DNA of 64,000 bases from Candidatus Poribacteria bacterium (GCA_965214095.1 OZ243938.1:640001-704000), one strand, 5' to 3'; shown: positions 10,146 to 51,609, counted from the stretch's first letter. Made by a program: numbers and translations. Notes: a model not told the origin generated them from the letters alone.

Positions 10146-10258
10146 TTTTGTATCACTCCCTAAGATCACACAATCTGCAACATTTGAGATTATTAACACA
10201 ACTTTGCGGTAATTATACAACAATTCCAACTTATAATTCAAGAAAAAGTGATTCAGGG

Positions 10259-10478
10259 CAGGGTTATTTAGTTATAGGTTTATCTTGTGTTTTTTTCACA
10301 AATGCTAAATGCCTCAAGCTGGTAGGTGCGGTTTCCTAACCGCACCGAATTTGTGCGAAAACCTTTCATAGTCATTATTCTTGTAGGTTCCAGTGCGGTT
10401 AGGAAACCGCACCTACCGGCCTGGGATTAACTTTCAGTAATCTCTATTTTGGAAAATACCGAAAACTAAATAACCCTG
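10259..10478. mobile_element. MITE, CAGGGTTATTTAG-type TIR, carrying an inverted REP pair
   Basis: TIRs CAGGGTTATTTAGTT/AACTAAATAACCCTG; 9-bp direct repeat GATTCAGGG at 10250-10258 and 10479-10487; GTAGGTGCGGTTTCCTAACCGCAC at 10322 and inverted copy ending 10416. Confidence 0.85.
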
Positions 10479-10486
10479 GATTCAGG

Positions 10487-10551
10487 GGGTGTGTAAAGTT
10501 CTTGGCACTACAATGGTGACTGGGATATTTTGCCAAAAACTTTACACACCC
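10487..10551. mobile_element. 65-bp MITE with GGGTGTGTAAAGTT TIRs
   Basis: GGGTGTGTAAAGTT...AACTTTACACACCC; flanks GATTCAGG/GATTCAGA. Confidence 0.7.
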
Positions 10552-10590
10552 GATTCAGATCAAATAACAAATATTTGGAAGATAATAATT

Positions 10591-10923
10591 TAGGGTTATT
10601 TATAGTAAAATCTGAAATTAACAATACACTTTACATTTAGAAAAACGCGTTTGTAGTCGCGCAATTCATTGCGCCTCTTACATTGTATGAATATGCAATT
10701 GGGACAATATGTTTCATTAATTGTCCGTTTTACTATAGTTTTCGGTTTTTCTGCTATATTTTTCACATTTCAATATAACAGCCTGTAGGTCGGGTAGAGG
10801 CACGAAACCCGACTTTATTGATGATAAATGGTTACATGTCGGGTTTCGTGCCTCTACCCGACCTACGATATAAACTCTTAGTAACATTCATCAATTGAAA
10901 ATTATTAAAACTAAATAACCCTG
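10591..10923. mobile_element. MITE (CAGGG-type) with REP pair, left TIR interrupted by a second MITE
   Basis: 9-bp direct repeat ATAATAATT at 10582-10590 and 10924-10932; GTAGGTCGGGTAGAGGCACGAAACCCGAC at 10785-10813 and exact inverted copy at 10838-10866. Confidence 0.85.
10603..10735. mobile_element. TA-flanked MITE (TAGTAAAA TIR) with GTAGTCGCGCAATTCATTGCGC REP
   Basis: TA|TAGTAAAA...TTTTACTA|TA; removing it restores AGGGTTATTTAGTTTTCGG. Confidence 0.8.
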
Positions 10924-10940
10924 ATAATAATTTGTGTAAC

Positions 10941-10969
10941 TTGACATTTCATATTTAACGTATTACTAT
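10941..10969 (+). promoter_or_regulatory. sigma70-type promoter upstream of the metal-binding protein gene
   Basis: TTGACA-17 bp-TACTAT. Confidence 0.6.
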
Positions 10970-10974
10970 ATACA

Positions 10975-11100
10975 TAAGCAATATTAAATAATAATCTTCC
11001 GATTTTTTTTCGGCAGATGACGACACCGAGTTCGTAGGGGCGGGGTTTCCCCGCCCGATATCAATGGACAATGTGCATATTTAATATTGAAACTTGCTTA
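10975..11100. mobile_element. MITE with TAAGCAA..TATTAAATA TIR and GTAGGGGCGGGGTTTCCCCGCCC REP
   Basis: Ends TAAGCAATATTAAATA / TATTTAATATTGAAACTTGCTTA (left end lacks 7 bp); REP at 11034-11056. Confidence 0.65.
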
Positions 11101-11196
11101 ATCATTGCTCATGCGAAAACTTGTTTCCACAACATTAGAAATCCAAAATTTACAAATTTATTGTCCAAATACAAAAATTAAGAAGGAGTTAAGTAT

Positions 11197-18036: not shown

Positions 18037-18162
18037 TACCATTTCTAAATGATGATTTACCATTATAGAGACACGCGTTCGTAGTCGCGCAATTCATTGC
18101 GCCTCTTACATTCACAAAACCTCGCAACTCTTCTAATGCGACTTTATTTCTTAGAATTGGTA
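18037..18162. mobile_element. TACCA-type MITE with GTAGTCGCGC REP
   Basis: TACCATTTCTAA...TTAGAATTGGTA; REP at 18081. Confidence 0.75.
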
Positions 18163-20715: not shown

Positions 20716-20827
20716 TACCATTTCTAATAGAAAACATCGCATTTTTGTAGCACAAACTGCCAGTTTGTGCCCTCCTTCAAGACATTCTTAACAGATGTTA
20801 ATGGGATAAACATCTATAGAAATGGTA
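20716..20827. mobile_element. 112-bp TACCA-type MITE with GTAGCACAAACTGCCAGTTTGTGC REP (copy 1)
   Basis: TACCATTTCTA...TAGAAATGGTA; near-identical, same-length copy at 23807-23918. Confidence 0.85.
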
Positions 20828-22284: not shown

Positions 22285-22499
22285 TAGTGAATTATAAAAT
22301 TAGTAGTCGCGCAATTCATTGCGCCTCTTACATTCACAGGTATGTGAGGTTACTAATACCAATCAAAAAAAAAATGAATGTGCATAAAGAAAAAGATTGT
22401 TCGTAGTCGCGCAATTCATTGCGCCTCTTACATTCACAGGTATGCAAGGTTTACTAACATCGCCTAAGCAGAGTGTTCAAATAATTTCAAAATCTACTA
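22285..22499. mobile_element. TAGT-type MITE region with two direct copies of the GTAGTCGCGC REP
   Basis: Imperfect TIR TAGTGAATTATAAAATTA / TAATTTCAAAATCTACTA; REPs at 22303 and 22403. Confidence 0.65.
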
Positions 22500-23715: not shown

Positions 23716-23918
23716 TACCATTTCTGAAAAATAACTTCTCATTAAGAAAGGAACCGTTCGTAGTCGCGCAATTCATTGCGCCTCTTACATTCTCTATTTT
23801 AAGTTATACCATTTCTAATAGAAAACGCCGCATTTTTGTAGCACAAACTGCCAGTTTGTGCAGTCCTTCAAGACATTCTTAACAAATGTTAATGGGATAA
23901 ACATTTATAGAAATGGTA
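23716..23918. mobile_element. Two abutting TACCA-type MITEs: a truncated one with GTAGTCGCGC REP and copy 2 of the 112-bp element (23807-23918)
   Basis: TACCATTTC at 23716 and 23807; REP at 23760; TAGAAATGGTA ends 23918. Confidence 0.8.
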
Positions 23919-26592: not shown

Positions 26593-26726
26593 TAGTAAAA
26601 ATCATAATTATTTACACACGACGGTAGGTTCGGTTTCCTAACCGAACCGGTGTTTGTTCAGTCTCATAGATGCGGTTAGGAAACCGCATCTACCGGGGAG
26701 TGTGAACGTATTTTTACATTTCACTA
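26593..26726. mobile_element. TA-flanked TAGT-type MITE carrying an inverted GTAGG..CGGTTTCCTAACCG REP pair
   Basis: TA|TAGTAAAAAT...ATTTCACTA|TA; REPs at 26624 and inverted copy ending 26693. Confidence 0.8.
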
Positions 26727-38200: not shown

Positions 38201-38694
38201 AGGTCTCAAAAGACGATCTCCGAAATGAATTGACAGAAAGGGCGGAACCTCTATTAGAGATCACAGTAGAAGCACAACTCAAAGGATTCTTAATCAATCT
38301 ATGCAACGAGGGGCATGATTTTACAGGTTGGGTCGAGGCACTTGGAACATTCCTTACCAAAAAACCGCCTGCCTCATGGGTAGACACCGACACAGTACAA
38401 TTTGAGATAAACCTTTCGCAACTTGCAAGAAAATTCCGACATTTTGAAGCCGTGTCTTATGAAAAACTACAACACGATGAATCTGATACAGAAACAATAC
38501 GTATAGGAATCACAACACCTAACGAAAACGAACAGGAACGTGTTGTAAAACTAACTGATGAGCAACAAGCTAAACAAATAGAACACGCAATTATTGAAGT
38601 ATTTGAGAAATATGATTTGGATGAAAAATCTGAACTTCGTCTGGCAGTTTTGGCACGAATTACAAAAAACCTGATACGTGAATCTGATGAATAA
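35212..38694 (+). CDS. Large P-loop ATPase (SspC/BrxC-like)
   Basis: RFRRSVHLERD, Walker A GPYGSGKS, Walker B LLIIDELGK, EWTKVQGRF, PLHP, QNERSLF motifs. Confidence 0.85.
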   Translation: MANVPLSDLFHVKGRFRRSVHLERDFYRENAIDGYVLTATAREMLSRVISTLENGSTSKAWSLTGPYGSGKSAFALFAAKLLGNSNSPTAQQALELLERGDTSLYERFKNSNGNGNQSDSGFCPVLISGERAPLSLALLRSLDRGLLNSNGTYISISLQQELKELLEAASKDSLPTASDVTHLYESATQQICDSGGSGLLLIIDELGKFLEFAAQNPSQGDMFILQSLAELADRSQQTPLFLMTILHQAFEAYALRTEQSQREEWTKVQGRFEDVVFTEPTEQVLRLVGAALEKPSDIVSKEDLSTATELGLIPQQLNENEFSHLLQECLPLHPTVALLIGPLFKRFAQNERSLFAFLNSSEPYGLQDFLTQQDYDGSILPKYTIADLYDYLDATQGNELFTSSNGKKWAEIESALMQIQNPSELTVKLIKTIGLLGIVRESVPNLKASEELLRYALFNGEEGFDSEYSNTLTTLKNRSIVTYRRHNDVYVLWEGSNVDIEERLREAETHVDTRAALVSDLSRYMPTRPLVARRHLYQTGTLRYFSIRYTDLDNFDTDLNEPLGDADGLILYALPADDFEVKQLIEKTTDDDIAERKEVLIAIPHSIGFLNNAVTQLAYLHWVSENTPELNGDAVARRELEKRLEIVEREVSESLSAIYGVDNKEACVWYHQGQSTDIDSERARNEYLSRICDNVFSETPFIRNELINRRKISGAVTSARRKLIQAMLENGDKENLGISGYPPEMSIYRSLLWDTGIHRMESGVWGFHPPKSHDQNRIEHTWHAFESFLNKCEESRQPVENLYNHLSFPPLGVRKGPLPILLCAVILHYRTEIALYENGSFVADLSMPLFERLLKAPENFELKRFRLTGIRTELFSQFLELLNQPIYSEDADLLTIVAPLMRFIAQLPNYTQKTQEISPEAKNLREVVSKASEPDELLFKQLPEALGYSVFSAESTDTKKLTDFFNTLQNALSELGGAYDRLLNSLERMLADAFMLEVSKDDLRNELTERAEPLLEITVEAQLKGFLINLCNEGHDFTGWVEALGTFLTKKPPASWVDTDTVQFEINLSQLARKFRHFEAVSYEKLQHDESDTETIRIGITTPNENEQERVVKLTDEQQAKQIEHAIIEVFEKYDLDEKSELRLAVLARITKNLIRESDE

Positions 38695-38731
38695 TTATAT
38701 TGATTTTTTCTGGCACTTATAATATAATCTA

Positions 38732-38998
38732 TAGTTAGGACAATTTCTCTTGGTTACATACTGATATTGCTAGCATTTGCAATATATTGTAAGTTTTGGA
38801 TAGGATAGGACTTTGATGAAAAAGTGTGAAAACATCAAAATGAGCAGCCCCAGCGGGGCGGAATGTGTATAGAAAAATGTCCCCGACCAATGCAAGCCCC
38901 AGCGGGGCGACAGGTGTATCATTGAAGAAATAGGTCCGATGACTGTGATGCTCCTTGTCCAGAGCAATGTTCACGTCCTCAAAAAATTGTCCAAACTA
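38732..38998. mobile_element. TA-flanked MITE with two GCCCCAGCGGGGCG hairpins
   Basis: TA|TAGTTAGGACAATTT...AAATTGTCCAAACTA|TA; related partial copy at 50764-50957. Confidence 0.8.
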
Positions 38999-39251
38999 TA
39001 GTAATATAATGCATTGTATGAATAAAGCAGTCCTACAGGACGATCTTTTACCCGAATATGATTTATGAAAGTTACGGGACCGAGGGACAGGTCCTGGACA
39101 CAAATCCTTGCTGGTAAACCTATTGTCCAATTAGAACCTGACGTTGCATGGGTTTTTCCAATGTTGTAGTTGTGAATGAAGCACTACTATTTCTGATTCA
39201 CATTACAAGAAAAACAACGTTGGAGATTAATCGGGGTTATTGGGGAGCAAC

Positions 39252-40070
39252 ATGTCACAGAAAATTAGACATCTACTCGGTCTATCGGGTGGAAAAGACA
39301 GTTCTGCACTTGCTGTCTACATGCGAGACAGAGTGCCAGAGATGGAATACTTCTTCACTGATACCGGTAAAGAACTGCCAGAGACTTACGATTTTTTAGA
39401 CCGACTTGAAGCATTCCTCGGCAAACCGATTGCGCGTCTCAACGTTGAACGTGATTTTGATCATTGGTTGACACTTCACGGTGGATTATTGCCATCCTCT
39501 CAAGTCCGTTGGTGCACTATCAAACTCAAAATCAAACCTTTTGAGGAATATGTCGGCGAAGATATGGTGTATCATTACATCGGTATTCGTGCTGACGAAG
39601 ATCGTGTCGGATACAAACCACCTAAGATAAGTTCCCTTCAAAACATTTTCCCCAAATATCCATTTAAAGATGACGGTATTACCAAAGAGGACGTTTTCCG
39701 AATCCTTGAGGAGAGCGGACTCGGTTTGCCTGACTATTACAAATGGCGCACGCGTTCTGGTTGCTACTTCTGCTTTTTCCAACGCAAATCCGAATGGGTG
39801 GGACTCTTAGAGGAACACCCCGATCTCTTTGAACTTGCCAAGGGTTATGAGAAATTCAATACAGATACAGGTGAACGGTTTACATGGAGTCAGGGTGAAA
39901 GTTTAGAGGAGTTAACAGACCCAGAACGGATAGCACAAATTAAAGAACGCACAGAACAGGCAAAGACATCCAAGAAAAAGGAAAAACCGAATCGTCGTTT
40001 GATAGAAATTCTTACCGATGTTCACGATGATGAGGATGACGAGGAACCTTGTTTGGTTTGTCATAAGTGA
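39252..40070 (+). CDS. PAPS-reductase family protein (SspD-like)
   Basis: LSGGKDS PP-loop, RWCT, GIRADE, RSGCYFC, C-terminal CLVCH; GGAG RBS before ATG 39252. Confidence 0.88.
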   Translation: MSQKIRHLLGLSGGKDSSALAVYMRDRVPEMEYFFTDTGKELPETYDFLDRLEAFLGKPIARLNVERDFDHWLTLHGGLLPSSQVRWCTIKLKIKPFEEYVGEDMVYHYIGIRADEDRVGYKPPKISSLQNIFPKYPFKDDGITKEDVFRILEESGLGLPDYYKWRTRSGCYFCFFQRKSEWVGLLEEHPDLFELAKGYEKFNTDTGERFTWSQGESLEELTDPERIAQIKERTEQAKTSKKKEKPNRRLIEILTDVHDDEDDEEPCLVCHK

Positions 40071-41029
40071 AAATGTGGAGATTGGCAATGGATAGAGAAC
40101 AAATTCTGCAAAAATTTGAAACCTTACGACAATGGGGCAGTAGAGGTGAACGAGCACCACACAAACCCTTGTTGGTTCTCTATGCCATTGGTAAATTGCT
40201 ACGCGGTGAAGATAGACTTATTCCTTATACTGATGACATTGAGGAAAATCTCAAGAAATTGCTGAGAGAATTTGGTCCGAGGAGAAATACTTATTATTCA
40301 CATTTCCCATTTTGGAGACTGCAAAATGATGGAGTCTGGGAAGTCACCAATGCAAATAATATACGGCAAACAGCAAGTGGTGATGCTTATGTTACAGATT
40401 TAAGAGAAAACAACGTATCAGGTGGCTTCAATGAGACAATCTCTGAACAACTACAAAACGATTCTGATCTTGCAGTTGAAATAATTCATAGCCTTTTAGA
40501 TGCTCATTTTCCAACTTCAATTCACGAAGACATCCTACAGTCAGTTGGTATTGAACTTCCCTTACAAGCATTTGATACGAGAACGCGCACATCTAATTTC
40601 CGAACTAGCATTCTTAGAGCTTATGAGTATAAATGTGCTGTCTGTGGGTTTGATGTAAAATTGGGTGATTCTCCTGTAGCATTGGAAGCTGCACATATCA
40701 AATGGCAAAGGGCAGACGGCCCTGACATTGAAGTAAATGGATTGGCTCTCTGCTCGCTGCATCATAAGTTATTTGACCGTGGTGCATTCACATTGTCAAG
40801 ACAACTACAAATCTTAGTCTCTGATGATGCACATGGGACAACGGGTTTTCAGGAGTGGCTGATGGATTTTCACGGCAACACGATCAATTTTCCACAGAGA
40901 CGTTCCTACTATCCAGAGGAAGAGTTTATCGGTTGGCACGTCAAAGAGGTGTTTCAAGGACATTATCGTGAATTGAAATCAGCAGGAATTGAAAATACTC
41001 AACATCATAAGAAAAATAACCCTGACTGA
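40067..41029 (+). CDS. Sulfur-binding-domain (SBD) HNH endonuclease, ScoMcrA-related phosphorothioate-reading family
   Basis: N-terminal RAPHKPLLVL...HFPFWRLQNDGVW; C-terminal CAVCG..EAAHI..NGLALCSLHHKLFD. Confidence 0.8.
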   Translation: MKMWRLAMDREQILQKFETLRQWGSRGERAPHKPLLVLYAIGKLLRGEDRLIPYTDDIEENLKKLLREFGPRRNTYYSHFPFWRLQNDGVWEVTNANNIRQTASGDAYVTDLRENNVSGGFNETISEQLQNDSDLAVEIIHSLLDAHFPTSIHEDILQSVGIELPLQAFDTRTRTSNFRTSILRAYEYKCAVCGFDVKLGDSPVALEAAHIKWQRADGPDIEVNGLALCSLHHKLFDRGAFTLSRQLQILVSDDAHGTTGFQEWLMDFHGNTINFPQRRSYYPEEEFIGWHVKEVFQGHYRELKSAGIENTQHHKKNNPD

Positions 41030-43049
41030 TTCCACAGGTATGCACAAGAATATGAGAAACTATAAATCAAAATCAAACAAGTATGGATTAACTCTAAACT
41101 TTTTGGAGGTAGTTTTTGGGAAAAAAAGACTTTCTCTCCAAAAAGCAGAATACTCACATGATTTGTTTGTTGAATATAAGGAAAATCCGAATTTTTATAT
41201 CCACAGATATGATGATGGAATGTACGTCTGGGAACTTTGTCCAACAGACGAAGTATTGCCCAATTCTTTCAGCGAAGCAGAGGTAACAATAGAACACCAT
41301 GCTCCAATTTTCACCAAAATTATAGAACGTGCTATTGTTACTTTTTTTATTAATAATAATTATAAAGTTTCCAAACGTCGATATTCTTCAATATGGGAAG
41401 TCGAACTTAAAAAGGAAGATGAAGGAAGTTTTAATGCTTTGGTTGTACGACCAACTATAGTGTTTTCCTTAAGAAACTTGTACTCAAAATTGGAAAGTAG
41501 ACAAGTTGTTGCTCTCACTATTAGAAAACGAGGAAAACCAATTTTTACTGGAAGTGAAGAAGAAATTAAAACACAATTAACAGACACACGTGGATTGACA
41601 CGTAACCGTGATGAAAATTTCGTTGCATCACGGGACAATCTAAAAAGATACCTAGAAGCTACAGGGCAGATGCAAGACTATGAAAGTTTCCTTAGTGAAA
41701 TGGAAAAACCACAAAACGAATTTTCATATCTTAAACAATGTCCAGCATCCTTTAATAAAATTGCTCCAAATTTGCACCTTCCAAATGAATTGGAAGTCTC
41801 AAACTTTTTACTTGTTAATCTTCCAAGTGCTTCTTTTGAATCTACTGTGATTGACAAACCAAAATACTATTTTTACAACGAAGGGACAAAAAGAGGATAT
41901 TATAACCAGGTTGTCTCTGAATTGAGACCTTATTCATACGATCTCTTTAGAAATAGAAAGTTGAATATCCTTGTAGTCTCTCCTGATGAATATGAGGGCA
42001 GTGTTGACGAGTATATGGTAACATTGAAGAAAAAGTTGCGAGATTTATTTCATTTGAAAGATGTTAAATTCCACTTCACGATGGTGAGGTTACCAGAAAC
42101 TTATCTTAGTGCTTTAAATAAGATAGATGTAAAGGATTACGATATTGCAATTATTATTTTATCTCAACGAGACAAAGATATTGAAAGTTCGCTTTCTCCA
42201 TATTTTTTGACAAAAGCAAAGCTATTAAACCAGCGACTTCCAACTCAAGATCTAACGATAGAGGTTCTGAGAAAGAGTGATTATATTATAGACAATAATA
42301 TTGCTCTAAATGTCTATTCTAAACTTGGTGGAATAGCGTGGACGATAGAAAAGTCCGAGAAAAACATTTCAGAGCTAATTATAGGGATTGGGTCTACAGT
42401 TGATGATAGTGGGGAACGAATTATTGGTTTTGCCAATGTTTTTGACTATAATGGAGCGTACCTTGTTGGAGACTGTAGCCAATTAAGTACATTAAACGAA
42501 TATACGAAAAATCTTGAAAATTATTTGGTAGAGACTTTAACACAATCATTTGAAAAGAAAGGTTTTACAGAGAGAGATAGTGTTAGACTCATATTCCATC
42601 TGTTTAAAGAAGCAGGAAAAAAGCATGAATTGAAGTCCATTGAAAATGTTCTAAAGCGTTTTAAAGATTACAATATACAATTTAGTTTAGTGCACCTTAG
42701 TTATGGGCACAATTTTAGAATGTTCAAGAATTGGGGAAATGATCGTCCCGATCGTGGCACATTTGTACAACTGTCTTCGCGACAAGCATTGCTTCATTTG
42801 GGTGGTAGATCAGTTGTACCAATACAAATACGGTTAGATAGAAGGTCAGAATATAGAGATCTTTACGAAATCACAAGACAAGTTCTTTATTTCACTCACC
42901 TTTCATATCGCACTTTTATTCCACCAAGTCAACCAGTTACCGTTAAATATCCAAATTTAATGGCGAAAATGGTTAGTGAACTCAAGAAAGTTCCAGGATG
43001 GGATTATTCAATTCTGAATCATTTGAACGAAAAGCTCTGGTTCATTTAA
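40989..43049 (+). CDS. Long prokaryotic Argonaute, catalytically inactive (long-B-like); true start probably 41040 or 41052
   Basis: MID pocket PYFLTKAKLL..LPTQ..NIALNVYSKLGG; PIWI with LIIGIG, RLIFHLFK, RGT, QVLYFTHLSY, PVTVKY; DEDX acidic residues replaced. Confidence 0.88.
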   Translation: MKILNIIRKITLTDSTGMHKNMRNYKSKSNKYGLTLNFLEVVFGKKRLSLQKAEYSHDLFVEYKENPNFYIHRYDDGMYVWELCPTDEVLPNSFSEAEVTIEHHAPIFTKIIERAIVTFFINNNYKVSKRRYSSIWEVELKKEDEGSFNALVVRPTIVFSLRNLYSKLESRQVVALTIRKRGKPIFTGSEEEIKTQLTDTRGLTRNRDENFVASRDNLKRYLEATGQMQDYESFLSEMEKPQNEFSYLKQCPASFNKIAPNLHLPNELEVSNFLLVNLPSASFESTVIDKPKYYFYNEGTKRGYYNQVVSELRPYSYDLFRNRKLNILVVSPDEYEGSVDEYMVTLKKKLRDLFHLKDVKFHFTMVRLPETYLSALNKIDVKDYDIAIIILSQRDKDIESSLSPYFLTKAKLLNQRLPTQDLTIEVLRKSDYIIDNNIALNVYSKLGGIAWTIEKSEKNISELIIGIGSTVDDSGERIIGFANVFDYNGAYLVGDCSQLSTLNEYTKNLENYLVETLTQSFEKKGFTERDSVRLIFHLFKEAGKKHELKSIENVLKRFKDYNIQFSLVHLSYGHNFRMFKNWGNDRPDRGTFVQLSSRQALLHLGGRSVVPIQIRLDRRSEYRDLYEITRQVLYFTHLSYRTFIPPSQPVTVKYPNLMAKMVSELKKVPGWDYSILNHLNEKLWFI

Positions 43050-43967
43050 ATGTTAATAATTGAAGAATTTAAAAGATATAAACAGTATTATCTTGATCGG
43101 TCAAGTCCAAAGCAAGAGATATTTTACAAGTTTTTAAATAGAGAGACGTTGTTAGATTTTCTAACTAAAGAAGATCTGACAGATATTGAACAGATGTGTC
43201 TTTCCATTTTCTGCACTGATGTCCCTTCTAGAAAAAAATTGATAGAAAGGAAAAGGAAGGAAAAAGTAATTGGAGGAATGCACTACACAAGGAATTTAAT
43301 TGAACTCACAGCGATGGCGATTGATGATTTGAAACAAGAAGAGGATAATTTGAAAACATATTGCCAAGACAACCCTACAAGACATTTTTTTATACTCAAT
43401 CAATTGTTTCCTGATCTTACATTCTATCGAGCGGATCCACAAGGAAGTGTTGACCAAATTGCATTACATCTCTGCCAAAAAGACTTACCAAAAGAAGGAT
43501 GGAAAACTCTTTTGATCAATGCACTTTACGAAATATCAGATTTGAATGACTTCTATGTGGTTGAACAAGGATATCACCAAGCAATGGATGATCATCCCAT
43601 TATCCACCAAGTAAACGATATCCTTTATGTGAAAAATGACTGCGAGAGGTTTGTTAAAAAAACTGAACGTAATGTAAAACTCGCTATAGGGCTAGTGCTC
43701 TTTCTACTGCTGGTGGGTATATGTTTTTTAGTTCCAACAATTCGCGAAAAATGGAATGAAGTTGAACCAATTTTTGGCGTAACTGGGGTTTTCTTATTTC
43801 TAATCGTAGAATTAATTTTTATTTTTCGCGGAAAAATTCTAGACCGAACAAAATTCACTAAGATGCTTATAGAAAAGATCACCAACTTTGTATTTAAAAA
43901 GAAGGGATGTAATCGTCTACAGTTAAAAGAAAGTTTATGTCGCCTAGTAAATGTGGGTGAAAAATAA
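43050..43967 (+). CDS. Argonaute-associated protein with two C-terminal TM helices (putative effector)
   Basis: ATG immediately follows the pAgo stop; TM segments LAIGLVLFLLLVGICFLV and IFGVTGVFLFLIVELIFIF. Confidence 0.75.
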   Translation: MLIIEEFKRYKQYYLDRSSPKQEIFYKFLNRETLLDFLTKEDLTDIEQMCLSIFCTDVPSRKKLIERKRKEKVIGGMHYTRNLIELTAMAIDDLKQEEDNLKTYCQDNPTRHFFILNQLFPDLTFYRADPQGSVDQIALHLCQKDLPKEGWKTLLINALYEISDLNDFYVVEQGYHQAMDDHPIIHQVNDILYVKNDCERFVKKTERNVKLAIGLVLFLLLVGICFLVPTIREKWNEVEPIFGVTGVFLFLIVELIFIFRGKILDRTKFTKMLIEKITNFVFKKKGCNRLQLKESLCRLVNVGEK

Positions 43968-44107
43968 AACTTCTATTGTAAGTGTTATTATTCACTACTA
44001 TTGTTGTGTAAGTATGATATAACAAATTCTCTGTTATCCTTCATTCATACCTTCAAATAAGAAATGTTTGTCACTTTCCTATCAACACCACCCACCAAAA
44101 ACTTCCC

Positions 44108-44137
44108 TTGACAAACCGCCAGTCCCTCAAGTATAAT
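44108..44137 (+). promoter_or_regulatory. Consensus sigma70 promoter; homologous copies near 45597, 49514 and 52149
   Basis: TTGACA-18 bp-TATAAT in four homologous copies. Confidence 0.75.
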
Positions 44138-44174
44138 CAATAAAACAACCGGAAACCGAGGCACAACACACAGC

Positions 44175-44266
44175 ATGGCACAATATGACGAAATCGTGAA
44201 GCATCTGATGCACCAGTACGCCAATGAGTTCGCCATGCTATCCTTTAGCACACCCGATGTCCAAGT
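44175..44266 (+). pseudogene. 5' fragment of Rpn gene
   Basis: MAQYDEIVKHLMHQYANEFAMLSF matches 45665; breaks after GATGTCCAAGT. Confidence 0.85.
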
Positions 44267-44269
44267 TTT

Positions 44270-44515
44270 CAGGGTTTTTTGTTCAATATTATTCACAATC
44301 GTTAATCTTCTTGTGGGTATGTATTCCTATTTGTCTGAAGCATGATTAGTAGATGGACAGGATAGATACTTGGTGTTTCTAAGTGCCACTGAAAAGAAAA
44401 AGGTAATCATTTAGACAGGCACTTCGGCGTGACAAACTCTAATCCCGGGGAATGCCAAAAGGCATTCATACCGTTGATTTGAAAATCTACTAATCCTGAA
44501 AATCCTGGTTCAGAG
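44270..44515. repeat. CAGGG-derived element with inverted AATCCTG-type repeats; related copies 46883-47270 and 51408-51515
   Basis: TGTCTGAA..GATTAGTAGAT..CAGGAT ... AATCTACTAATCCTGAAAATCCTGGTTCAGA. Confidence 0.7.
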
Positions 44516-44532
44516 AATAAAAAGAGGAAATC

Positions 44533-44778
44533 ATGCAAGAATCTCCATTTTACGAACTAATTATACAACGTGGTGTTCAACAAGGTGCACGTGAAAATTC
44601 CATCAAGAATATCCTATCTGTGCTCACTGAGCGTTTTCCACAGAGCGATGTGCAACCAGTGGCGGAAGCACTTGAATCTATTCAAGACATTGATCGTTTG
44701 ACAGAGCTTCATCGAACAGCAGTCCGGACATTTAACGTTGAAACGTTCCTGCAAGAAATTGACAAACAGGAAGTGTAA
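44533..44778 (+). CDS. Stand-alone Rpn C-terminal domain (RpnS-like short form)
   Basis: MQESPFYELIIQRG.. homologous to the C-termini of both full Rpn genes; RBS AGAGGA. Confidence 0.75.
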   Translation: MQESPFYELIIQRGVQQGARENSIKNILSVLTERFPQSDVQPVAEALESIQDIDRLTELHRTAVRTFNVETFLQEIDKQEV

Positions 44779-44868
44779 TACCAAATCAACCTAAATCGTA
44801 GGGGCAGGGTTCCCCTGTCCATCCGTGTTCTCAGTATCAAGAATAATACAGAGCTCGTTAATTTGGTA
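44779..44868. mobile_element. TACCA-type MITE with GTAGGGGCAGGGTTCCCCTGTCC REP (duplicate near 48697-48786)
   Basis: TACCAAAT...ATTTGGTA; REP at ~44798. Confidence 0.7.
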
Positions 44869-44958
44869 TAATACTTCCTCTGTCTGAACGATCTCCGAAC
44901 GGATGACAAACATAGACTAATCCGTCAACGCATCAATCCCACACACGGCAAATATCCA

Positions 44959-45466
44959 TCAGGACTCGTTGCTATAGCGGGTGTCTTCGCTAACGACTTC
45001 TTCTGTGGTTCCGTTCAAAAACTCTGATAGCAGTTGCGTTTTTTTACCGCCACAGTCGTTCAGATGGACAACAGTGACTTCCTCAGGGTCACTTGCTGCC
45101 TCTATATCTTCAAATATCAGCATCGTCATAGAATGGGTTTTGTATCTTGAGAAGCTGCTGGAATGCTTTGACCTCCTCTTTCATCTCAGCGATTTTGTGT
45201 ATCCTCTCAAGATACCTATACTACACATGTGTGCGAGCATTTTCCACACGGAGATATAGATCCAGTTTCTTTTTCTCATTGGTATTGAGATCACTTTTCT
45301 TAATCTTGCCATCTTCAAGCTGCTGCTTGTATTCCTCTCCGTCTCTCAACCAGTTCCGAAGAGTCTGGTAAGTGATCCCACAATAGGCTGCAATGCGATG
45401 CAGCGGGAGATTGGATACTTCCACAACAGTCACGATTCGTTCTGCGATAATCGGTGTTAATTTCAT
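44959..45466 (-). pseudogene. HTH protein resembling phage terminase small subunit; internal TAG plus a 1-bp insertion
   Basis: MKLTP..IAAYCGITYQTLRNWL..RVENART; homology to copy 2 continues past the TAG; extra base near 45113. Confidence 0.65.
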
Positions 45467-45664
45467 AATAATGATATTATAGCATGAAAAAAGCCACTAA
45501 CAGGTGGCAGCTCCGAATTCTGTTTACGCTGCTATATTTTAGAAACAGATTTTTGATTTCAGTAAGAATATTGGTTCCCCTCAGTTGAATCTTTCCTTGA
45601 CAAATCACCGCCCCATCAAGTATAATCAATAAAACAACCAAAGAACCGAGGCATAACACACAGC

Positions 45665-46549
45665 ATGGCACAATATGACGAAATCGTGAAGCATCTGATG
45701 CACCAGTACGCCAATGAGTTTGCCATGCTATCCTTTGGCACACCCGATGTCCAAGTATTAGAGACACTTGACACCGAACATCAAAAGATTAAGGTGCATC
45801 GCAATGATATGACATTTAAAGTGCTATGGCACAATGAGACAGTCCTTCTACATATAGAGGTGCAAACGGAGGATAGTAGAGATAAACCGATGCCGTTCCG
45901 GATGCTCTCTTATGCGAGTGAACTTCTATTACGTCATGAACTTCCCGTATATTCGGTAGTGATATATTTGAGTCCAAATGCAGGGCAGACCGACCCAGGC
46001 GGTTATAGTTATGGAAATGATGTGTTCGGTTTGCAGCATAAATATCAGGTAATTCGGTTGGCGGATTTAGAAGGGGAAGCGTTTTTGGAAGCAGCATCGG
46101 TTGGACTGCTACCGTTTACGCCTTTAATGAAGCCACCAGAGGGTATCAACACAGAAGCCTGGTTGCAAAGATGTGTTGAGAAGACAGAAGCCGCACCCGT
46201 TGACACACAGACGCGTGGAACACTGTTGTTTGCCCTATCTCTATTAGGTGGTTTAGTCCATGACCCAAGTTTTTTTGAAAAACTTATAACGGAGGAAATC
46301 ATGCAAGAATCTCCTTATTATGAACTGCTTGCGCAGCGAATCTATGAACGAACTGCCCGTGAAACTTCTATCAATTATATTCTATCTGTGCTTACAAAAC
46401 GTTTTCCGTTGAGCGATGTACAACCTGTAGCGGAAGTACTGGAATCTATTCATGACCTTGATAGATTAACAGAGCTGCATCTCACTGCAATTGACATACC
46501 AAGTGTTGAGACATTCTTACAAACAATTGTTAGAACTTATAGCGAGTAA
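45665..46549 (+). CDS. Rpn family (YhgA-like PD-(D/E)XK) nuclease
   Basis: YD...K.L, D..F...LLHIEVQT..MPFRMLSY, PVYSVVIYL, GLLPFTPLM, IMQESP motifs. Confidence 0.88.
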   Translation: MAQYDEIVKHLMHQYANEFAMLSFGTPDVQVLETLDTEHQKIKVHRNDMTFKVLWHNETVLLHIEVQTEDSRDKPMPFRMLSYASELLLRHELPVYSVVIYLSPNAGQTDPGGYSYGNDVFGLQHKYQVIRLADLEGEAFLEAASVGLLPFTPLMKPPEGINTEAWLQRCVEKTEAAPVDTQTRGTLLFALSLLGGLVHDPSFFEKLITEEIMQESPYYELLAQRIYERTARETSINYILSVLTKRFPLSDVQPVAEVLESIHDLDRLTELHLTAIDIPSVETFLQTIVRTYSE

Positions 46550-46702
46550 GAGCTAAGAACTCAAATTAAATAGGTATCTGAAGTGGCAAGAATGGGACAT
46601 AAAGTCTATCCTTTTCTTTCCTTATTTTACCGAATCCTTATGTTTTACTCAATATGACTTCTTACATAAATCACCTTGGCAAGAATGAAATCACGCCCCC
46701 TA

Positions 46703-46760
46703 ATGCAACCCAAAATCACCGTCATCGGCAGTGCAAACGTTGACCGCGTCATCTGCACAG
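46703..46760 (+). pseudogene. Duplicated 5' fragment of rbsK
   Basis: ATGCAACCCAAAATCACCGTCATCGGCAGTGCAAACGTTGACC.. matches the rbsK start at 52217. Confidence 0.85.
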
Positions 46761-46786
46761 TCTTTAGGAAAAGGTACAACACACAG

Positions 46787-46878
46787 CATAGCACAATATG
46801 ACGAAATCGTGAAGCATTTGATGCACCAGTACGCCAATGAGTTCGCCATGCTATCCTTTGGCACGCAGGATGTCCAAG
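46787..46878 (+). pseudogene. 5' fragment of Rpn gene (ATG mutated to ATA)
   Basis: Same breakpoint as the 44175 fragment. Confidence 0.8.
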
Positions 46879-47068
46879 TCTTCAGGGTTTTTTGTTCAAT
46901 ATTATTCACAATCGTTAATCTTCTTGTAGGTATGTCCTCCTATTTGTCTGAACCAGGATTAGTAGATGGACAGGATAGATACTTGGTGTTTCTAAGAGCC
47001 ACTCAAAAGAAAAGGTAATCATTTAGACAGGCACTTCGGCGAGACAAACTCTAATTCCGGGGAATGCC

Positions 47069-47187
47069 TAATGAAGATTAATTTATTAAACGGGTAATTC
47101 TCATTTTCTCAAACCCGGTAGGAGCGGTTTCCTAACCGCTCCGGACTTCTCAAGGAAATTACCTGATTTATTTCTTAATCTTCATCA
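47069..47187. mobile_element. 119-bp MITE (TAATGAAGATTAA TIR) carrying GTAGGAGCGGTTTCCTAACCGCTCC REP
   Basis: TIRs TAATGAAGATTAA/TTAATCTTCATCA; absent from the homologous site at 44450-44467. Confidence 0.85.
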
Positions 47188-47320
47188 GGCGTTCATACCG
47201 TTGATTTCTTGATTTGAAAATCTACTAATCCTGAAAATCTACTAATCCTGAAAATCCTGGTTCAGACAATAAAAAGAGGAAATGATGAGATCTACTCAGT
47301 TTGCGTCCGTCCTGATATTA

Positions 47321-48394
47321 TTACTTTGCCTCTTTTGACACAGTCTCCTCACCTTTCTGAACCACATTCTCATCAGAAAGCACATCCGAAGCAGGCGCAT
47401 TCAGTGCCGCAACCTTAGGCGGCGCAAACGACTGCATTTCAGATGAACCAATCGCATCAGACGACTCCACACCCAGCATTTCCAAAGTATTATGCTCCTT
47501 CAAAGAATCCAACTGATCCCGATAAACAGGATCACGCGTCAACGTAAACAAACCCGCTACCGTCTTAACAATCGCATTCGATAACGACACCAAATCCCTC
47601 GGATCCTTCGCAGAATCTCGCGCCTCAACCAACTTTTCATAATGATCCGACAACGCCTGAACCTGCTCCACTACCGTCGACATCGGTATACCCGTCAACG
47701 CCTGCTGAAAAAGTTCACGCTCATCATCCCAAACACACCGATATTTCTTCGGAAAACGAGGATTAGACGATTTCAAATATACTAACTGCGGATGAAGATA
47801 CCTACGAAGCCGATCCATACCGCAAACATCCTCAAACTTCCATGACGCAAACGGCGACAAATCATCATCCGAAAAAATCAAATCAGTAATCACCGCTGTC
47901 GTAGACAATCCACGTGCATGCCCCCGTACAGCTACCTCCCGCAACGAAGGCAAAAGACACTTACGATAATACGGATAAAGCAGATCGTCCATCCATTCCC
48001 GACACGCTTCTTTGTAATCAATGAAAATGCCGGTATAGTCACGAAACGGTTCCCGGTCATAATAATTTCTATAACCATCGTGAATTTTTCTATAGTTAAC
48101 TTCTCCTTTGATACCCACACCGATTTTGTCCTTATCTTCCACACACTTACGATACCCAATCAAACACATCATCCAAGACATATCTTTCATCGTCATATAA
48201 CCCAAACCAAAAAATTCCTCCTGCACCGACAAAGGCATCTCTGATGGAAGACTTTGCTCCAAAACACACGGATGATACAACGCAAATGCCTCCTCTAATT
48301 CCAGAAAACCAACCCCCATCGCTTCAAACATATTTTCAATAGATGCCGGTTCTTCTACATGTTTTGTCCAATAAGACTTCAACTTCTTATTCAT
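47321..48394 (-). CDS. Hypothetical protein, C-terminal part DUF2280-like (phage)
   Basis: FPKKYRCVWDDERELFQQALTGIPMSTVVEQVQALSDHY resembles the DUF2280 pattern from memory; GGAG RBS; atypical G/T-rich third positions. Confidence 0.55.
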   Translation of the reverse strand: MNKKLKSYWTKHVEEPASIENMFEAMGVGFLELEEAFALYHPCVLEQSLPSEMPLSVQEEFFGLGYMTMKDMSWMMCLIGYRKCVEDKDKIGVGIKGEVNYRKIHDGYRNYYDREPFRDYTGIFIDYKEACREWMDDLLYPYYRKCLLPSLREVAVRGHARGLSTTAVITDLIFSDDDLSPFASWKFEDVCGMDRLRRYLHPQLVYLKSSNPRFPKKYRCVWDDERELFQQALTGIPMSTVVEQVQALSDHYEKLVEARDSAKDPRDLVSLSNAIVKTVAGLFTLTRDPVYRDQLDSLKEHNTLEMLGVESSDAIGSSEMQSFAPPKVAALNAPASDVLSDENVVQKGEETVSKEAK

Positions 48395-48632
48395 TTCTCA
48401 CTCCTATAAATCAAAATTTGATGATGTCAGAGACGTAGTCTCCTTACAAAGTTCAAGAATCCGTTCACGATTATTGACTTCCGCGCCACTTTCTAACTTC
48501 ACACTATGTTTTCGTACCACTCCTTTTTGACCACGCACTACACGCTTACACGCCAAATAATGCTTACGAGACCCACGAGTCCGCCTGCCGAACTCACGAA
48601 GCAAACATTCATAAGGTGTATCAACGGCATTA

Positions 48633-50231
48633 AACAGCAGTCCGGACATTCAACGTTGAAACGTTCCTGCAAGAAATTGACAAACAGGAAGTGTAATACC
48701 AAATCAACCTAAATCGTAGGGGCAGGGTTCCCCTGTCCATCCGTGTTCTCAGTATCAAGAATAATACAGAGCTCGTTAATTTGGTATAATACTTCCTCTG
48801 TCTGAACGATCTCCGAACGGATGACAAACATAGACTAATCCGTCAACGCATCAATCCCACACACAGCAAATATCCATCAGGACTCGTTGCTATAGCGGGT
48901 GTCTTCGCTAACGACTTCTTCTGTGGTTCCGTTCAAAAACTCTGATAGCAGTTGCGGTTTTTTACCGCCACAGTCGTTCAGATGGACAACAGTGACTACC
49001 TCAGGGTCACTTGCTGCCTCTATATCTTCAATATCAGCATCGTCATAGAATGGGTTTTGTATCTTGAGAAGCTGCTGAAATGCTTTGACCTCCTCTTTCA
49101 TCTCAGCGATTTTGTGTATCCTCTCAAGATACCTATACTACACATGTGTGCGAGCATTTTCCACACGGAGATATAGATCCAGTTTCTTTTTCTGTTTAGT
49201 ATTGAGATCACTTTTCTTTATCTTCCCATCTTCAAGCTGCTGCTTGTATTCTTCTCCGTCTCTCAACCAGTTCCGAAGAGTCTGGTAAGTGATCCCACAA
49301 TAGGCTGCAATGCGATGCAACGGGAGATTGGATACTTCCACAGCAGTCACGATTCGTTCTGCGATAGTTGGTGTTAATTTCATAATAATGATATTATAGC
49401 ATGAAAAAAGCCACTAACAGGTGGCAGCTCCGAATTCTGTTTACGCAACATTATTTTAGAAACAGATTTTTGATTTCAGTAAGAATATTGGTTTCTCTCA
49501 GTTGAATCTTTCCTTGACAAATCACCGCCCCATCAAGTATAATCAATAAAACAACCAAAGAACCGAGGCATAACACACTGCATGGCACAATATGACGAAA
49601 TCGTGAAGCATCTGATGCACCAGTACGCCAATGAGTTTGCCATGCTATCCTTTGGCACACAAGATGTCCAAGTATTAGAGACACTTGACACCGAACACCA
49701 AAAGATTAAGGTGCATCGCAATGACATGACATTTAAAGTGCTATGGCACAATGAGACAGTCCTTCTACATATAGAGGTGCAAACACAGGATAGCAGAGAT
49801 AAACCGATGCCATTGCGGATGCTCTCTTATGCAAGTGAACTCCTGCTACGTCATGAACTTCCCGTGTATTCGGTGGTGATATATTTAAGTCCAAATGCGG
49901 GGCAGACCGACCCGGGTGGATACAGTTATGGAAATGATGTGTTCGGTTTGCAGCATAAATATCAGGTAATTCGGTTGGCGGATTTAGAAGGGGAGGCGTT
50001 TTTGGAAGCAGCATCGGTTGGACTGCTACCGTTTACGCCTTTAATGAAGCCACCAGAGGGTATCAACACAGAAGCATGGTTGCAAAGATGTGTTGAGAAG
50101 ACAGAAACCGCACCCGTTGACTTACAAACACGTGGAACGCTGTTGTTTGCCCTATCTCTATTAGGTGGCTTAGTCCATGACCCAAGTTTTTTTGAAAAAC
50201 TTATAACGGAGGAAATCATGCAAGAATCTCC
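48633..50231. repeat. ~1.6 kb direct repeat, copy 2
   Basis: Matches 44715-46314. Confidence 0.92.
48877..49383 (-). pseudogene. TerS-like HTH gene with a single in-frame TAG (49138-49140)
   Basis: ORFs 49138-49383 and 48877-49101 are in frame, joined by YRYLERIHKIAE. Confidence 0.7.
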
Positions 50232-50454
50232 ATTTTACGAACTAATTATACAACGTGGTGTTGAACGAGGTGCACGTGAAACTTCCATCAATAATATTCT
50301 ATCTGTGCTCACTGAGCGTTTTCCACAGAGCGGTGTGCAACCAGTGGTGGAAGCACTTGAATCTATTCAAGACCTTGATCACTTGACAATATTGCTTCGT
50401 AAAGCAGTCAAGACTCCCAGTGTCAAAGAATTCTTACAAGCAATTGATTCATAA
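49582..50454 (+). CDS. Rpn family nuclease, second intact copy
   Basis: N-terminal ~215 aa near-identical to the 45665 copy; divergent C-terminus. Confidence 0.88.
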   Translation: MAQYDEIVKHLMHQYANEFAMLSFGTQDVQVLETLDTEHQKIKVHRNDMTFKVLWHNETVLLHIEVQTQDSRDKPMPLRMLSYASELLLRHELPVYSVVIYLSPNAGQTDPGGYSYGNDVFGLQHKYQVIRLADLEGEAFLEAASVGLLPFTPLMKPPEGINTEAWLQRCVEKTETAPVDLQTRGTLLFALSLLGGLVHDPSFFEKLITEEIMQESPFYELIIQRGVERGARETSINNILSVLTERFPQSGVQPVVEALESIQDLDHLTILLRKAVKTPSVKEFLQAIDS

Positions 50455-50486
50455 AACACCTTAACAGAATTGAAATCACGCCCCTA

Positions 50487-50544
50487 ATGCAACCCAAAAT
50501 CACCGTCATCGGCAGTGCAAACGTTGACCGCGTCATCTGCACAG
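50487..50544 (+). pseudogene. Second duplicated rbsK 5' fragment
   Basis: Identical to 46703-46760. Confidence 0.85.
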
Positions 50545-50571
50545 TCTTTAGGAAAAGGCACAACACACAGC

Positions 50572-50662
50572 ATGGCACAATATGACGAAATCGTGAAGCA
50601 TCTGATGCACCAGTCCGCCAATGAGTTGCCATGCAATCCTTTGGCACACCCGATGTCCAAGT
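50572..50662 (+). pseudogene. Third 5' Rpn fragment
   Basis: Same breakpoint, followed by CAGGGTTATTTA. Confidence 0.8.
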
Positions 50663-50665
50663 TTT

Positions 50666-50970
50666 CAGGGTTATTTATGGTGAAGTATGAAATTATATCT
50701 ACACTTTCTTTCTACGGTAGGCAAGGTTTCCTCACCTCGTCCAAGCAATGTGTTAAATCACTATAGTTTGGACAATTTCTCTCGGTTGCATACTGATATT
50801 TCTAGCATTTTCAACATTTTGTGAGTTTTCAATAGGATAATAACTTGACGAAAAAGTGTTAGAATATCAAAATGAGCAGCCCCAGCGGGGCGAAATGTGT
50901 CCAGCACATCCTGAACAAACGATTTATAGCCCCAGCGGGGCGACAGGTGTATCATTCAAAGTTCACCATA
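50666..50970. mobile_element. Nested MITE stack
   Basis: CAGGGTTATT|TA|TGGTGAA...TTCACCA|TA containing a degenerate GTAGG REP and a TAGTTTGGACAATTT element. Confidence 0.7.
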
Positions 50971-51017
50971 ATTAACCATAGTATGAATCCTATAAGGATA
51001 AAATCCGACCTTTACCT

Positions 51018-51404
51018 ATGAAAAAAGCACTTGTAATCTGTGTACAATTTATCGCTTCAGTTGTAATCGGGTTGATATGGCATTTCCTAATCGTACCATT
51101 CCTTTTTTATAACACCTTTGCATCTAGTGTTATGAAAGGTAGAATGCGAGGAGATCCAATTGAATTTTATGGCATGGCTCAAGAGATAGTTTTGTATGCA
51201 AAGAAAGGATTTGCCCCTACTTTAGCAGAAAAAATCTGTACGATTTTTGCTGCGGTGGGGATACACGGTGTTTGGATATTTCCATTATTAGGTATTTTGC
51301 TTGGAATCCGACATCTCCTTTCTCAAAAAAACTATTCTGAAGATAAACTGATCAAAAGCAAAAATCAGATGAATGCAAATGCTGAAAATACAACTTTGGG
51401 ATAA
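51018..51404 (+). CDS. Small 2-TM membrane protein
   Basis: 128-aa ORF with two hydrophobic segments, enclosed by MITE ends. Confidence 0.6.
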   Translation: MKKALVICVQFIASVVIGLIWHFLIVPFLFYNTFASSVMKGRMRGDPIEFYGMAQEIVLYAKKGFAPTLAEKICTIFAAVGIHGVWIFPLLGILLGIRHLLSQKNYSEDKLIKSKNQMNANAENTTLG

Positions 51405-51609
51405 GATAATCCTGAAAATCTACTAATCCTGCAAATCCTGGTTCAAACAAATAGGAATGCAAACCAATAAAAAAATAACGTTTGTGAATGATATTGAATA
51501 AAAAACCGAAAACTATGGTGAAACATAAAAATAAATGAACATAATAACGACACCAAATCCTTCGGATCCTTCACAGATAAGACTTCAACTTCTTATTCAT
51601 TTCTCACTC

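Follow-up and report, generated by a model that had tools for sequence, protein, structure and literature searches.

Miniature elements in a Poribacteria genome that combine GTAG-led REP hairpins with unrelated terminal-repeat shells

The 64,000-nucleotide stretch of DNA analyzed here (the window, with positions counted from its first letter) comes from a Candidatus Poribacteria bacterium (GCA_965214095.1, OZ243938.1:640001-704000), has a base composition of 41% G+C, and carries genes for DUF1501, PSCyt2/PSD1, WD40, TPR, PhyH and Uma2 proteins, sulfatases, and a Piwi-domain protein. Between its genes lie short palindromes led by GTAG, of the kind known as repetitive extragenic palindromes (REPs), and many of these sit as cargo inside longer elements with inverted terminal repeats, referred to here as shells, several families of which are evidently miniature inverted-repeat transposable elements (MITEs). 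An original prediction, made from the window sequence alone, held that unrelated shells enclose the same REPs and that two systems of mobility are layered, one served by HUH-type REP-associated tyrosine transposases (RAYTs) and one by DDE transposases. Here we analyze how shells and cargos are combined, how the composites move, and how one small REP-carrying element, F1, is placed within other hairpins.

The two principal cargos are present in the window well above expectation. Cargo A, or REP-A, has a core, CGGTTTCCTAACCG, with five exact copies (10329+, 10396-, 26631+, 26673- and 47125+), where 0.23 are expected by chance and none of 100 shuffles reaches five. Cargo B, or REP-B (GTAGTCGCGCAATTCATTGCGC), likewise has five exact copies, all on the + strand, against an expectation of 0.00, and the copies of both families (5 + 5 in 64 kb) are all intergenic. 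Perfect GTAG-led hairpins number 17, compared with a mean of 2.97 and a maximum of 6 in 30 Markov simulations, and 15 of the 17 are intergenic. Eleven of these 15 are inside shells, which occupy approximately 2,400 of 9,085 intergenic bases (~26%; binomial P = 2e-4, with shell coordinates approximate by a few bases), and a count by element gives nine of 13 (P = 1.5e-3); REPs are thus commoner inside shells than in other intergenic DNA, as the original prediction required. REP-A has the form GTAGG-NN-CGGTT-TCCT-AACCG-NN, with the GTAG tag in the lead and a folding energy of -11.2 kcal/mol (z -5.7), and REP-B the form GTAGTC-GCGCAA-TTCA-TTGCGC (-6.3 kcal/mol, z -2.0). Additional families are REP-C (GTAGCACAAACT..AGTTTGTGC, with the window form GTAGCACAAACTGCCAGTTTGTGC), REP-G (GTAGGTCGGGTAGAG...), REP-H (GTAGGAGCGATCTCCGAATCGCGAC), and a further GTAG family of the GTAGGGGCGGGG type; those counted in the REP/RAYT system are A, B, C, G, H and the GGGGCGGGG type. 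A cyanobacterial source, at first suggested by the genes, was set aside: the HIP1 motif (GCGATCGC) has a count of zero in the window, and nearly all related loci described below are from Poribacteria.

The elements of the window are as follows.

10259-10478, + strand: putative S1 MITE with CAGGGTTATTTAG ends; 9-bp duplication GATTCAGGG at 10250-10258 and 10479-10487; REP-A inverted doublet at 10322-10346 (+) and 10392-10416 (-).
10591-10923, + strand: second putative S1 MITE; 9-bp duplication ATAATAATT; centre formed by a REP-G doublet (10785-10866); left end interrupted at TA by an S2 element.
10603-10735, + strand: putative S2 MITE (TAGTAAAA...TTTTACTA) nested in that S1 end; TA duplication; REP-B at 10653-10674.
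10975-11100, + strand: TAAGCAA-ended element (TAAGCAAG); 20-nt terminal repeat, 80% complementary; encloses GTAGGGGCGGGGTTTCCCCGCCC at 11034-11056.
18037-18162, + strand: putative S3 MITE (TACCATTTCT...TGGTA); 3-bp duplication TTA; REP-B at 18081-18102.
20716-20827, + strand: putative S3 MITE; 3-bp duplication TAA; REP-C at 20747-20770.
22303-22324 and 22403-22424, + strand: REP-B pair in a 100-nt direct duplication; no convincing terminal repeat.
23716-23806, + strand: S3-like unit with one end only, made up of a left arm and REP-B (23760-23781); counterpart in a related locus (L074) at 87% identity over 83 nt.
23807-23918, + strand: putative S3 MITE; 3-bp duplication TTA; REP-C at 23838-23861.
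26593-26726, + strand: putative S2 MITE; TA duplication; REP-A inverted doublet at 26624-26648 (+) and 26669-26693 (-); family also in L051, L073, L107 and others.
33744-34230, + strand: third putative S1 MITE; 9-bp duplication TGTGGAATT.
34086-34218: S2 element with a REP-H doublet, nested at TA of the right end of the third S1.
38732-38998, + strand: S6 element (TAGTTAGGACAATTT ends; TAGTTNGGACAATT); TA flanks; two direct AGCCCCAGCGGGGCG hairpins.
47071-47185, + strand: F1 element (ATGAAG...CTTCAT) with one REP-A at 47118-47142; arms of its host hairpin GAATGCC (47062-47068) and GGCGTTC (47188-47194).
50666-50960, + strand: pile-up of three pieces, namely an S1 left end (50666-50677), an S2-type piece whose decayed centre resembles REP-A (50678-50763), and part of an S6 that contains two AGCCCCAGCGGGGCG hairpins (50764 to ~50960).

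The window alone therefore places cargo A in three shell types, as had been proposed (10259-10478, 26593-26726 and 47071-47185), and cargo B in two. For cargo B the TAGTAAA shell at 10603-10735 and the TACCA shell at 18037-18162, with the half element at 23716-23806, hold, and the 'shell' described at 22285 finds no support beyond a direct duplication. Two other proposed families fared unevenly: the TAAGCAAG element does have a terminal repeat, and no second copy of it was found in 335 kb of related DNA; the TAGTTNGGACAATT family is real, with copies in L031 and L045, and its AGCCCCAGCGGGGCG hairpins are not GTAG-led.

Related DNA was collected by scanning reference genomes with the cargo-A pattern GTAGGNNCGGTTTCCTAACCG, which returned at least 122 matches in at least 109 loci (given L numbers here) and at least 121 distinct contexts. 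All of these loci were picked for their REP-A content, and the counts of REP-A and of shells below rest on the matches listed. Among these matches, 106 of the 109 loci are from metagenome-assembled genomes (MAGs) of Poribacteria, and one of the other three is from a Stahlbacteria MAG. None of the loci is the window, which we therefore assign to a Poribacteria genome outside this set. Of the loci listed, those most similar to the window are L031 (97% over the 47059-47185 element) and L063 (74% over 1.7 kb of coding DNA). The exact 14-nt core of REP-A is conserved over at least about 50 species-level genomes, and the consensus of the 121 contexts is CCGGTAGG-NN-CGGTTTCCTAACCG-NN-CCGG. The 3' NN, which was free in the search, pairs with the 5' NN at both positions in 104 of the 121, through five combinations (TG/CA 60, TT/AA 35, CA/TG 5, AG/CT 3 and CG/CG 1), and the REP stems appear to be kept by compensatory changes. 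REP doublets are found for REP-A at 10322/10416 and 26624/26693 and for REP-B in L046, L043 and L106; a strict inverted partner accompanies nine of the 121 REP-A contexts, decayed partners falling outside this count.

REP-A is associated with a RAYT gene in a related Poribacteria chromosome. In L037 (OX638316.1) an open reading frame (ORF) at 2592-3065, of 157 amino acids, matches Pfam Y1_Tnp at 1.7e-16 and passes the NCBIfam equivalog model 'REP-associated tyrosine transposase' (NF047646; 128.4 bits against a cut-off of 80) but fails the IS200 model (46.3 bits against a cut-off of 55). Its translation includes HVH and the tyrosine in RYCYANP, motif positions judged by eye. Arrays of REP-A in both orientations flank this ORF on both sides, and the loops of several of these copies have taken up other small elements. 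The ORF shares 53-99% identity with 91 protein clusters, each on 1-4 contigs, some of which are 5-6.7 Mb long; the four clusters with a source name are all from Poribacteria. The opposite profile is seen in L006, where a 95-aa fragment of IS200 type scores 60.7 bits with the IS200 model and 28.5 with that for RAYT. Because cargo A flanks, on both sides, a gene that passes the RAYT model, it is in all probability a genuine REP, and the GTAG hairpins most likely belong, as had been predicted, to a REP/RAYT system conserved across Poribacteria. This flanking is seen for REP-A only, in that related genome; REP-B, C, G and H are without a RAYT link.

The shells are distinguished by their ends and by the duplications that flank them. 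S1 (CAGGGTTATTTAG ends) has a perfect 9-bp duplication in seven of eight copies (L047, L052, L059, L073 and all three of the window, as originally described), the exception, L070, being two tandem elements without duplication. S2 (TAGTRAA...TTYACTA) has the predicted TA on both sides in 17 of 24 candidates, and several of the seven misses look mis-delimited. S3 (TACCAWTTCT...TGGTA), to which TA flanks had been ascribed, is in fact bounded by a 3-bp TWA duplication in six of six copies; S8 (TACCAAATTAACG), with TAA flanks, looks related to S3. S7 (ACGTGAGTTTGATAA) has a 7-9-bp duplication in five of eight. Judged by their terminal inverted repeats, fixed duplications, small size, non-coding content and repetition, S1, S2, S3 and S7 are evidently MITEs, and the duplications support their presumed movement by cut-and-paste transposases of at least three classes. 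From typical duplication lengths, we take the TA shells to be IS630/Tc1-like and the 3-bp TWA shells to be IS5/PIF-Harbinger-like. The view of shells as elements with terminal repeats and target duplications thus stands for these four families, and F1 departs from it.

Two features of S1 may be recorded here. Three of the four S2 elements of the window sit at TA within the TTTAG/CTAAA of an S1 end (10601-10602, 34084-34085 and 50676-50677), a placement which suggests that one MITE prefers the end of another as its target; L073 is without this pattern, its S2 lying ~20 nt past the S1 end. At L073 (1083-1950), S1 has grown to 868 nt, with approximately four tandem units of ~170 nt inside the REP-G doublet and the 9-bp duplication CCTTTATAA intact.

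Shells and cargos are combined in a many-to-many fashion. In the window, two or more cargo types are found in each of S1, S2 and S3, a count that is free of the sampling bias of loci chosen by REP-A. S1 encloses an A doublet, a G doublet or REP-H; S2 encloses REP-A singly or as a doublet, REP-B, or a doublet of REP-H; S3 encloses REP-A (L049, L101, L018 and L024), REP-B (window and L074) or REP-C (window and L099); and F1 carries REP-A in 18 of 20 copies (two of which lack 1 nt), while the L022 copy has a B-like REP and the L057 copy a variant. Viewed from the cargo, 59 of the 121 REP-A contexts fit both arms of one of eight shell families and 22 fit one arm, assignments that demand matches to the terminal arms and not similarity of the REP. 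The 59 comprise F1 (24), S2 with a singlet (15), S2 with a doublet (5), S1 (5), S3 (3), S8 (3), S7 (2) and S9 (2). REP-A is therefore not tied to one shell, since with other genomes included it occupies at least eight families. A compound cargo, in which an GAATACGCG..GGTATTC hairpin lies beside a damaged REP-A, recurs in F1 (L013), S1 (L052), S2 (L107 and L007) and S7 (L071); either this cargo has passed from shell to shell or the small hairpin strictly prefers one site in REP-A.

Several composites have been copied whole. In L012, two F1 copies 3 kb apart agree at 113 of 114 positions and have in common a private loss of 1 nt from the REP-A loop, yet lie in different GTAG hairpins. The S7 elements with REP-A in L066 and L091 are identical at 120 of 120 positions on one chromosome, at 3.95 Mb and 2.17 Mb, 1.8 Mb apart. 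Within the window, the two S3 elements with REP-C (20716 and 23807) agree at 106 of 112 positions and have different duplications. Because identical composites occupy different sites of one chromosome, REP and shell are shown, on sequence grounds, to move together as a unit, so that REPs hitchhike on their shells. The predicted hitchhiking is upheld by these composites (113/114 and 120/120); the companion proposal, that REPs preferentially invade MITEs through RAYT activity, is not, REP-A having no tight insertion signature.

F1 is an element of ~115 nt with ATGAAG...CTTCAT ends, no ORF, and REP-A in its middle; the ends first assigned to it, TAATGAAGATTAA, were not the true ones. It has no ordinary signature of terminal repeats plus target duplication and lies instead inside another hairpin. 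A perfect inverted repeat of at least 5 nt flanks 15 of 20 copies (mean 6.8), compared with 2.7% of 4,000 control positions, and mostly starts 2 nt from each end; the same base lies immediately left and right of F1 in 17 of 20. The flanking arms vary between copies and match hairpins that are also present empty with a fitting triloop. Thus GTCCC-GTA-GGGAC occurs in 14 empty copies (among the loci listed) and filled as GTCCC-GT[F1]TA-GGGAC; CGCGTTT-TGT-AAACGCG is filled as ..TG[F1]GT..; and ACAAACT-GTT- and -AAA-AGTTTGT are filled as GT[F1]TT and AA[F1]AA. At least seven of 15 targets are GTAG-led, and one is REP-C, which is found empty inside the S3 shells of the window. Target and F1 fold as one hairpin, with energies of -42.5 kcal/mol in L109 (z -9.9), -35.9 in L012 (z -9.0) and -27.9 in the window (z -6.3). 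Because of the flanking inverted repeats, the equal flanking bases, the matching empty triloop hairpins and the joint folds, F1 evidently inserts, with a 1-nt duplication, at the dyad centre of short palindromes, which may be extruded hairpins or symmetric duplexes. The strand of its REP-A relative to the GTAG of the target, scored by eye, is the same in four cases and opposite in four, with no bias. Only four F1 copies lie away from the REP-A match by which their locus was selected (two in L012, one in L022 and one in L057), and these carry a deleted REP-A (two), a B-like REP (one) and a variant (one).

Loops of REPs also receive another small element, a GAATGCC..GGCATTC hairpin followed by ATACCGTTGATTT, which is inserted in REP-A and REP-B loops in L037 (1900-2360), L029, L074 and L057. 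Its window copy (47186-47215) is the hairpin that F1 has entered.

The surroundings of these elements include a probable defence island and a segmental-repeat junkyard. The former (34261-43967) encodes a DUF4007 protein, a 1160-aa ORF of no family, a PAPS-reductase domain protein, an HNH_2 nuclease, the Piwi-domain protein (a prokaryotic Argonaute) and a 305-aa ORF of no family; its upstream edge is marked by an S1/S2 nest, and the S6 element lies between two of its genes. The latter (43968-52216) contains two full ORFs of ~290 aa (45665-46549 and 49582-50454) that are without a match in Pfam or NCBIfam, three fragments from the 5' part of this gene, and small helix-turn-helix ORFs. More generally, ORFs at 43.9-52.3 kb match no Pfam or NCBIfam family at useful scores. 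The ESM Atlas neighbours of the ~290-aa ORFs, 'Rpn family recombination-promoting nuclease/putative transposase' clusters with a score of 0.97, offer a lead only. A 700-bp segment is duplicated at 97-99% identity (44710-45412 and 48628-49329). A promoter-like TTGACA..TATAAT stretch from upstream of a pfkB kinase gene occurs in four copies (44097-44150, 45586-45639, 49503-49556 and 52138-52191), and the first 56 nt of pfkB occur in three (46705-46760, 50489-50544 and 52222-52277), two of them joined to fragments of the Rpn-like ORF. A partly tandem repeat family, TGAAAATCTACTAATCCTGAAAATCCTGGTTCAGA, is found at 44474-44535, 47209-47287 and 51407-51468 and in L078, L103, L074 and L005.

We give a probability of roughly 60% to the reading that a layered REP/RAYT system and several MITE classes, with repeated entry of REPs, joint amplification and nesting of F1 in hairpins, explain these combinations. 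In this scheme, the GTAG hairpins would be REP families of a REP/RAYT system conserved in Poribacteria, and the shells would be MITEs mobilized in trans by transposases of several unrelated classes: S1 with 9 bp, S3 and S8 with 3-bp TWA, S2 and S6 with TA, and S7 with 7-9 bp. REPs or cassettes of REP doublets would repeatedly reach MITE interiors and leave the ends undisturbed, a route of entry suggested by the pattern alone, and the composite then multiplies through transposition of its shell with the REP hitchhiking, as the duplicated composites show. Finally, F1 would enter the centres of triloop hairpins, often GTAG REPs including REP-C, to produce hairpin-in-hairpin nests. The combinatorial appearance would be the sum of these last three steps, namely entry, joint multiplication and nesting.

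A number of observations weigh against this layered scheme. Since the loci were picked for REP-A, the frequencies of shells around it are biased. Forty of the 121 REP-A contexts, RAYT-side arrays among them, lack a fit to any of the eight shells. Outside this genome, REP-B is mostly found in tandem arrays, not shells. REP-A has little of an insertion signature of its own, with a flanking inverted repeat of at least 6 nt in eight of 120 cases and in 3.3% of controls. S7 has its REP off-centre, between flanks of ~63 and ~33 nt. The cargo type of S2 follows the arm subfamily, a match which suggests few, old acquisitions followed by amplification. The search for genes gave a RAYT in L037 and none in the 64-kb window; among 431 ORFs of the loci, a self-comparison made without a Pfam scan found neither a multi-copy transposase-like family nor an autonomous transposase with matching ends.

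The REP-B arrays have a regular form. They are tandem arrays of inverted REP-B doublets, in L046 (1050-1920), L106 and L043, with periods of 169 and 236 nt, in which the doublets alternate with GTAG-less REP-A cores.

A different account, which we regard as unlikely, is that the composites are recombination mosaics, in which hairpin exchange (by gene conversion, or by RAYT single-strand cutting at C|T and rejoining) swaps the centres of elements. It draws on the variable centre of S1, which is bounded within ~10 nt by GTAGG...CCTAC between homologous arms, on the lack of an insertion signature for REP-A, and on the report that strand transfer by E. coli TnpA-REP 'can create sequence variability', its cut sites being scattered across a stretch of over 400 nt around the REP (PMC3333891). 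However, the swapped segment of F1 (L022 compared with the rest) reaches 17-30 nt past the REP on each side and is not bounded by GTAG, cargo orientation varies among S3 copies, and exchange itself is not directly seen. Quite improbable, in our judgment, is that shells were born around REPs, an insertion sequence (IS) landing beside a REP or doublet and a fold-back or deletion leaving inverted ends that enclose it. IS elements of five families are known to target REPs according to Tobes and Pareja (2006, PMC1525189), most shells are near-palindromic along their whole arms, and such births would accord with the presence of REP-A in at least eight shell families. This account is countered by arms that stay homologous where the enclosed REP differs (A, B or C in S3; A or G in S1), which therefore require one shell with several entries or several identical births; moreover, no full-length parent element was seen. 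That a single system is at work, with composites as enlarged REPIN-like hairpins (REPINs being hairpins formed by REP doublets) moved by RAYT and coincidental duplications, is very hard to credit: whole elements do fold as long hairpins, and one survey (PMC3733652) records RAYT-related genes flanked by long terminal repeats, as well as REPs linked to unrelated stem-loops, but fixed family-specific duplications in 7/8 (9 bp), 6/6 (TWA) and 17/24 (TA) would not be expected of HUH single-strand transposition. Equally remote is the notion that the hairpins are host-useful modules for RNA stability or protein binding, kept by selection in neutral MITEs with REP mobility irrelevant, for although the exact REP-A core persists over so many species-level genomes and the five REP-B copies of the window share the + strand of the genes around them, no T run follows the hairpins, Rfam gives no window match at gathering scores, and the RAYT association and many-to-many pattern are left unexplained.

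The layered scheme admits a bolder version, which we offer tentatively and consider to be rather doubtful. REPs would be both passengers and landing pads, and RAYT, an HUH enzyme and not a DDE transposase, would integrate folded, single-stranded F1 into the apical nucleotide of a triloop; recursion of this process, together with REP entry into MITE interiors, would build the combinations. To our knowledge, no insertion signature is known for RAYT, and F1, if integrated in this way, would display the first visible insertion signature of RAYT-driven mobility. RAYT activity has been demonstrated in vitro. In Poribacteria, REPs ride in elements that leave signatures (9 bp, TWA, TA, and a 1-nt repeat at a hairpin centre), and single events of movement can therefore be read from sequence alone; F1 in addition has a target that is precisely defined by its structure, namely the centre of a triloop hairpin. 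In these uncultured sponge symbionts, nested hairpin elements make up a large share of the intergenic DNA.

The finding is real and robust and concerns largely known kinds of element (REP/RAYT, MITEs and their nesting) in an unusually rich many-to-many arrangement. No publication on Poribacteria REPs or MITEs came up in literature searches. As far as those searches reach, the Poribacteria REP/RAYT system, the breadth of shell-cargo combinations with composites transposing as units, and a REP-carrying miniature element that targets triloop-hairpin centres appear to be new. Small dispersed repeats of Nostoc, which Elhai and colleagues reportedly described in 2008, are said to be very small, to resemble hairpins, and to lie within each other and within larger repeats; they are not known to be linked to RAYT. 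IS elements that target REPs (IS1397 and ISKpn1 of the IS3 family; IS621 and ISPpu9 of the IS110 family) resemble F1 in that they, too, enter REP-type palindromes. Elements of the IS1397 type use an IS3-family transposase and make a 3-4 bp duplication. Unlike what is described of such IS elements, F1 is non-coding, measures 115 nt and itself carries a REP; its targets share a hairpin shape and not a sequence, and its duplication is 1 nt. The shells resemble bacterial MITEs moved by DDE transposases in their terminal inverted repeats, fixed duplications, length of 100-330 nt, non-coding content, multiple copies and mutual nesting; they differ in that their interiors are REPs of an unrelated HUH system and in that no autonomous partner was found among the 431 locus ORFs.

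REPs, REPINs and RAYTs are established elements (as set out by Bertels and Rainey 2011, PMC3116915), and E. coli TnpA-REP, in the account of Ton-Hoang (2012, PMC3333891), acts on single strands only, depends on GTAG, cleaves at C|T sites, those within CTAC included, and carries out strand transfer. The Poribacteria system is like these in its short GTAG palindromes, high intergenic copy number, some inverted doublets, REP-flanked HUH/Y1 gene and coexisting families; it is unlike them in its host and in that two thirds of the REP-A copies listed lie in MITE-like shells, rather than being naked or arranged as in bacterial interspersed mosaic elements. The closest precedents are in the survey of GTAG REPs in eight phyla by Di Nocera et al. 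(2013, PMC3733652). One paragraph of that survey places GTAG-15 dimers of Anabaena variabilis inside long palindromes with TATAGGA ends, so that a hybrid system was not wholly undescribed, and the survey also notes GTAG-23 of Thermomicrobium roseum inside small palindromes, many copies of which are empty and which were 'not investigated in detail'. The likeness to both lies in a REP or dimer at the centre of a longer palindrome with TATAG-like ends and in the presence of empty palindromes, in one species. In contrast to the case as given in that survey, one REP family in one palindrome, the Poribacteria elements stand in a many-to-many relation that goes beyond the report, are flanked by target duplications, and form composites that move as units.

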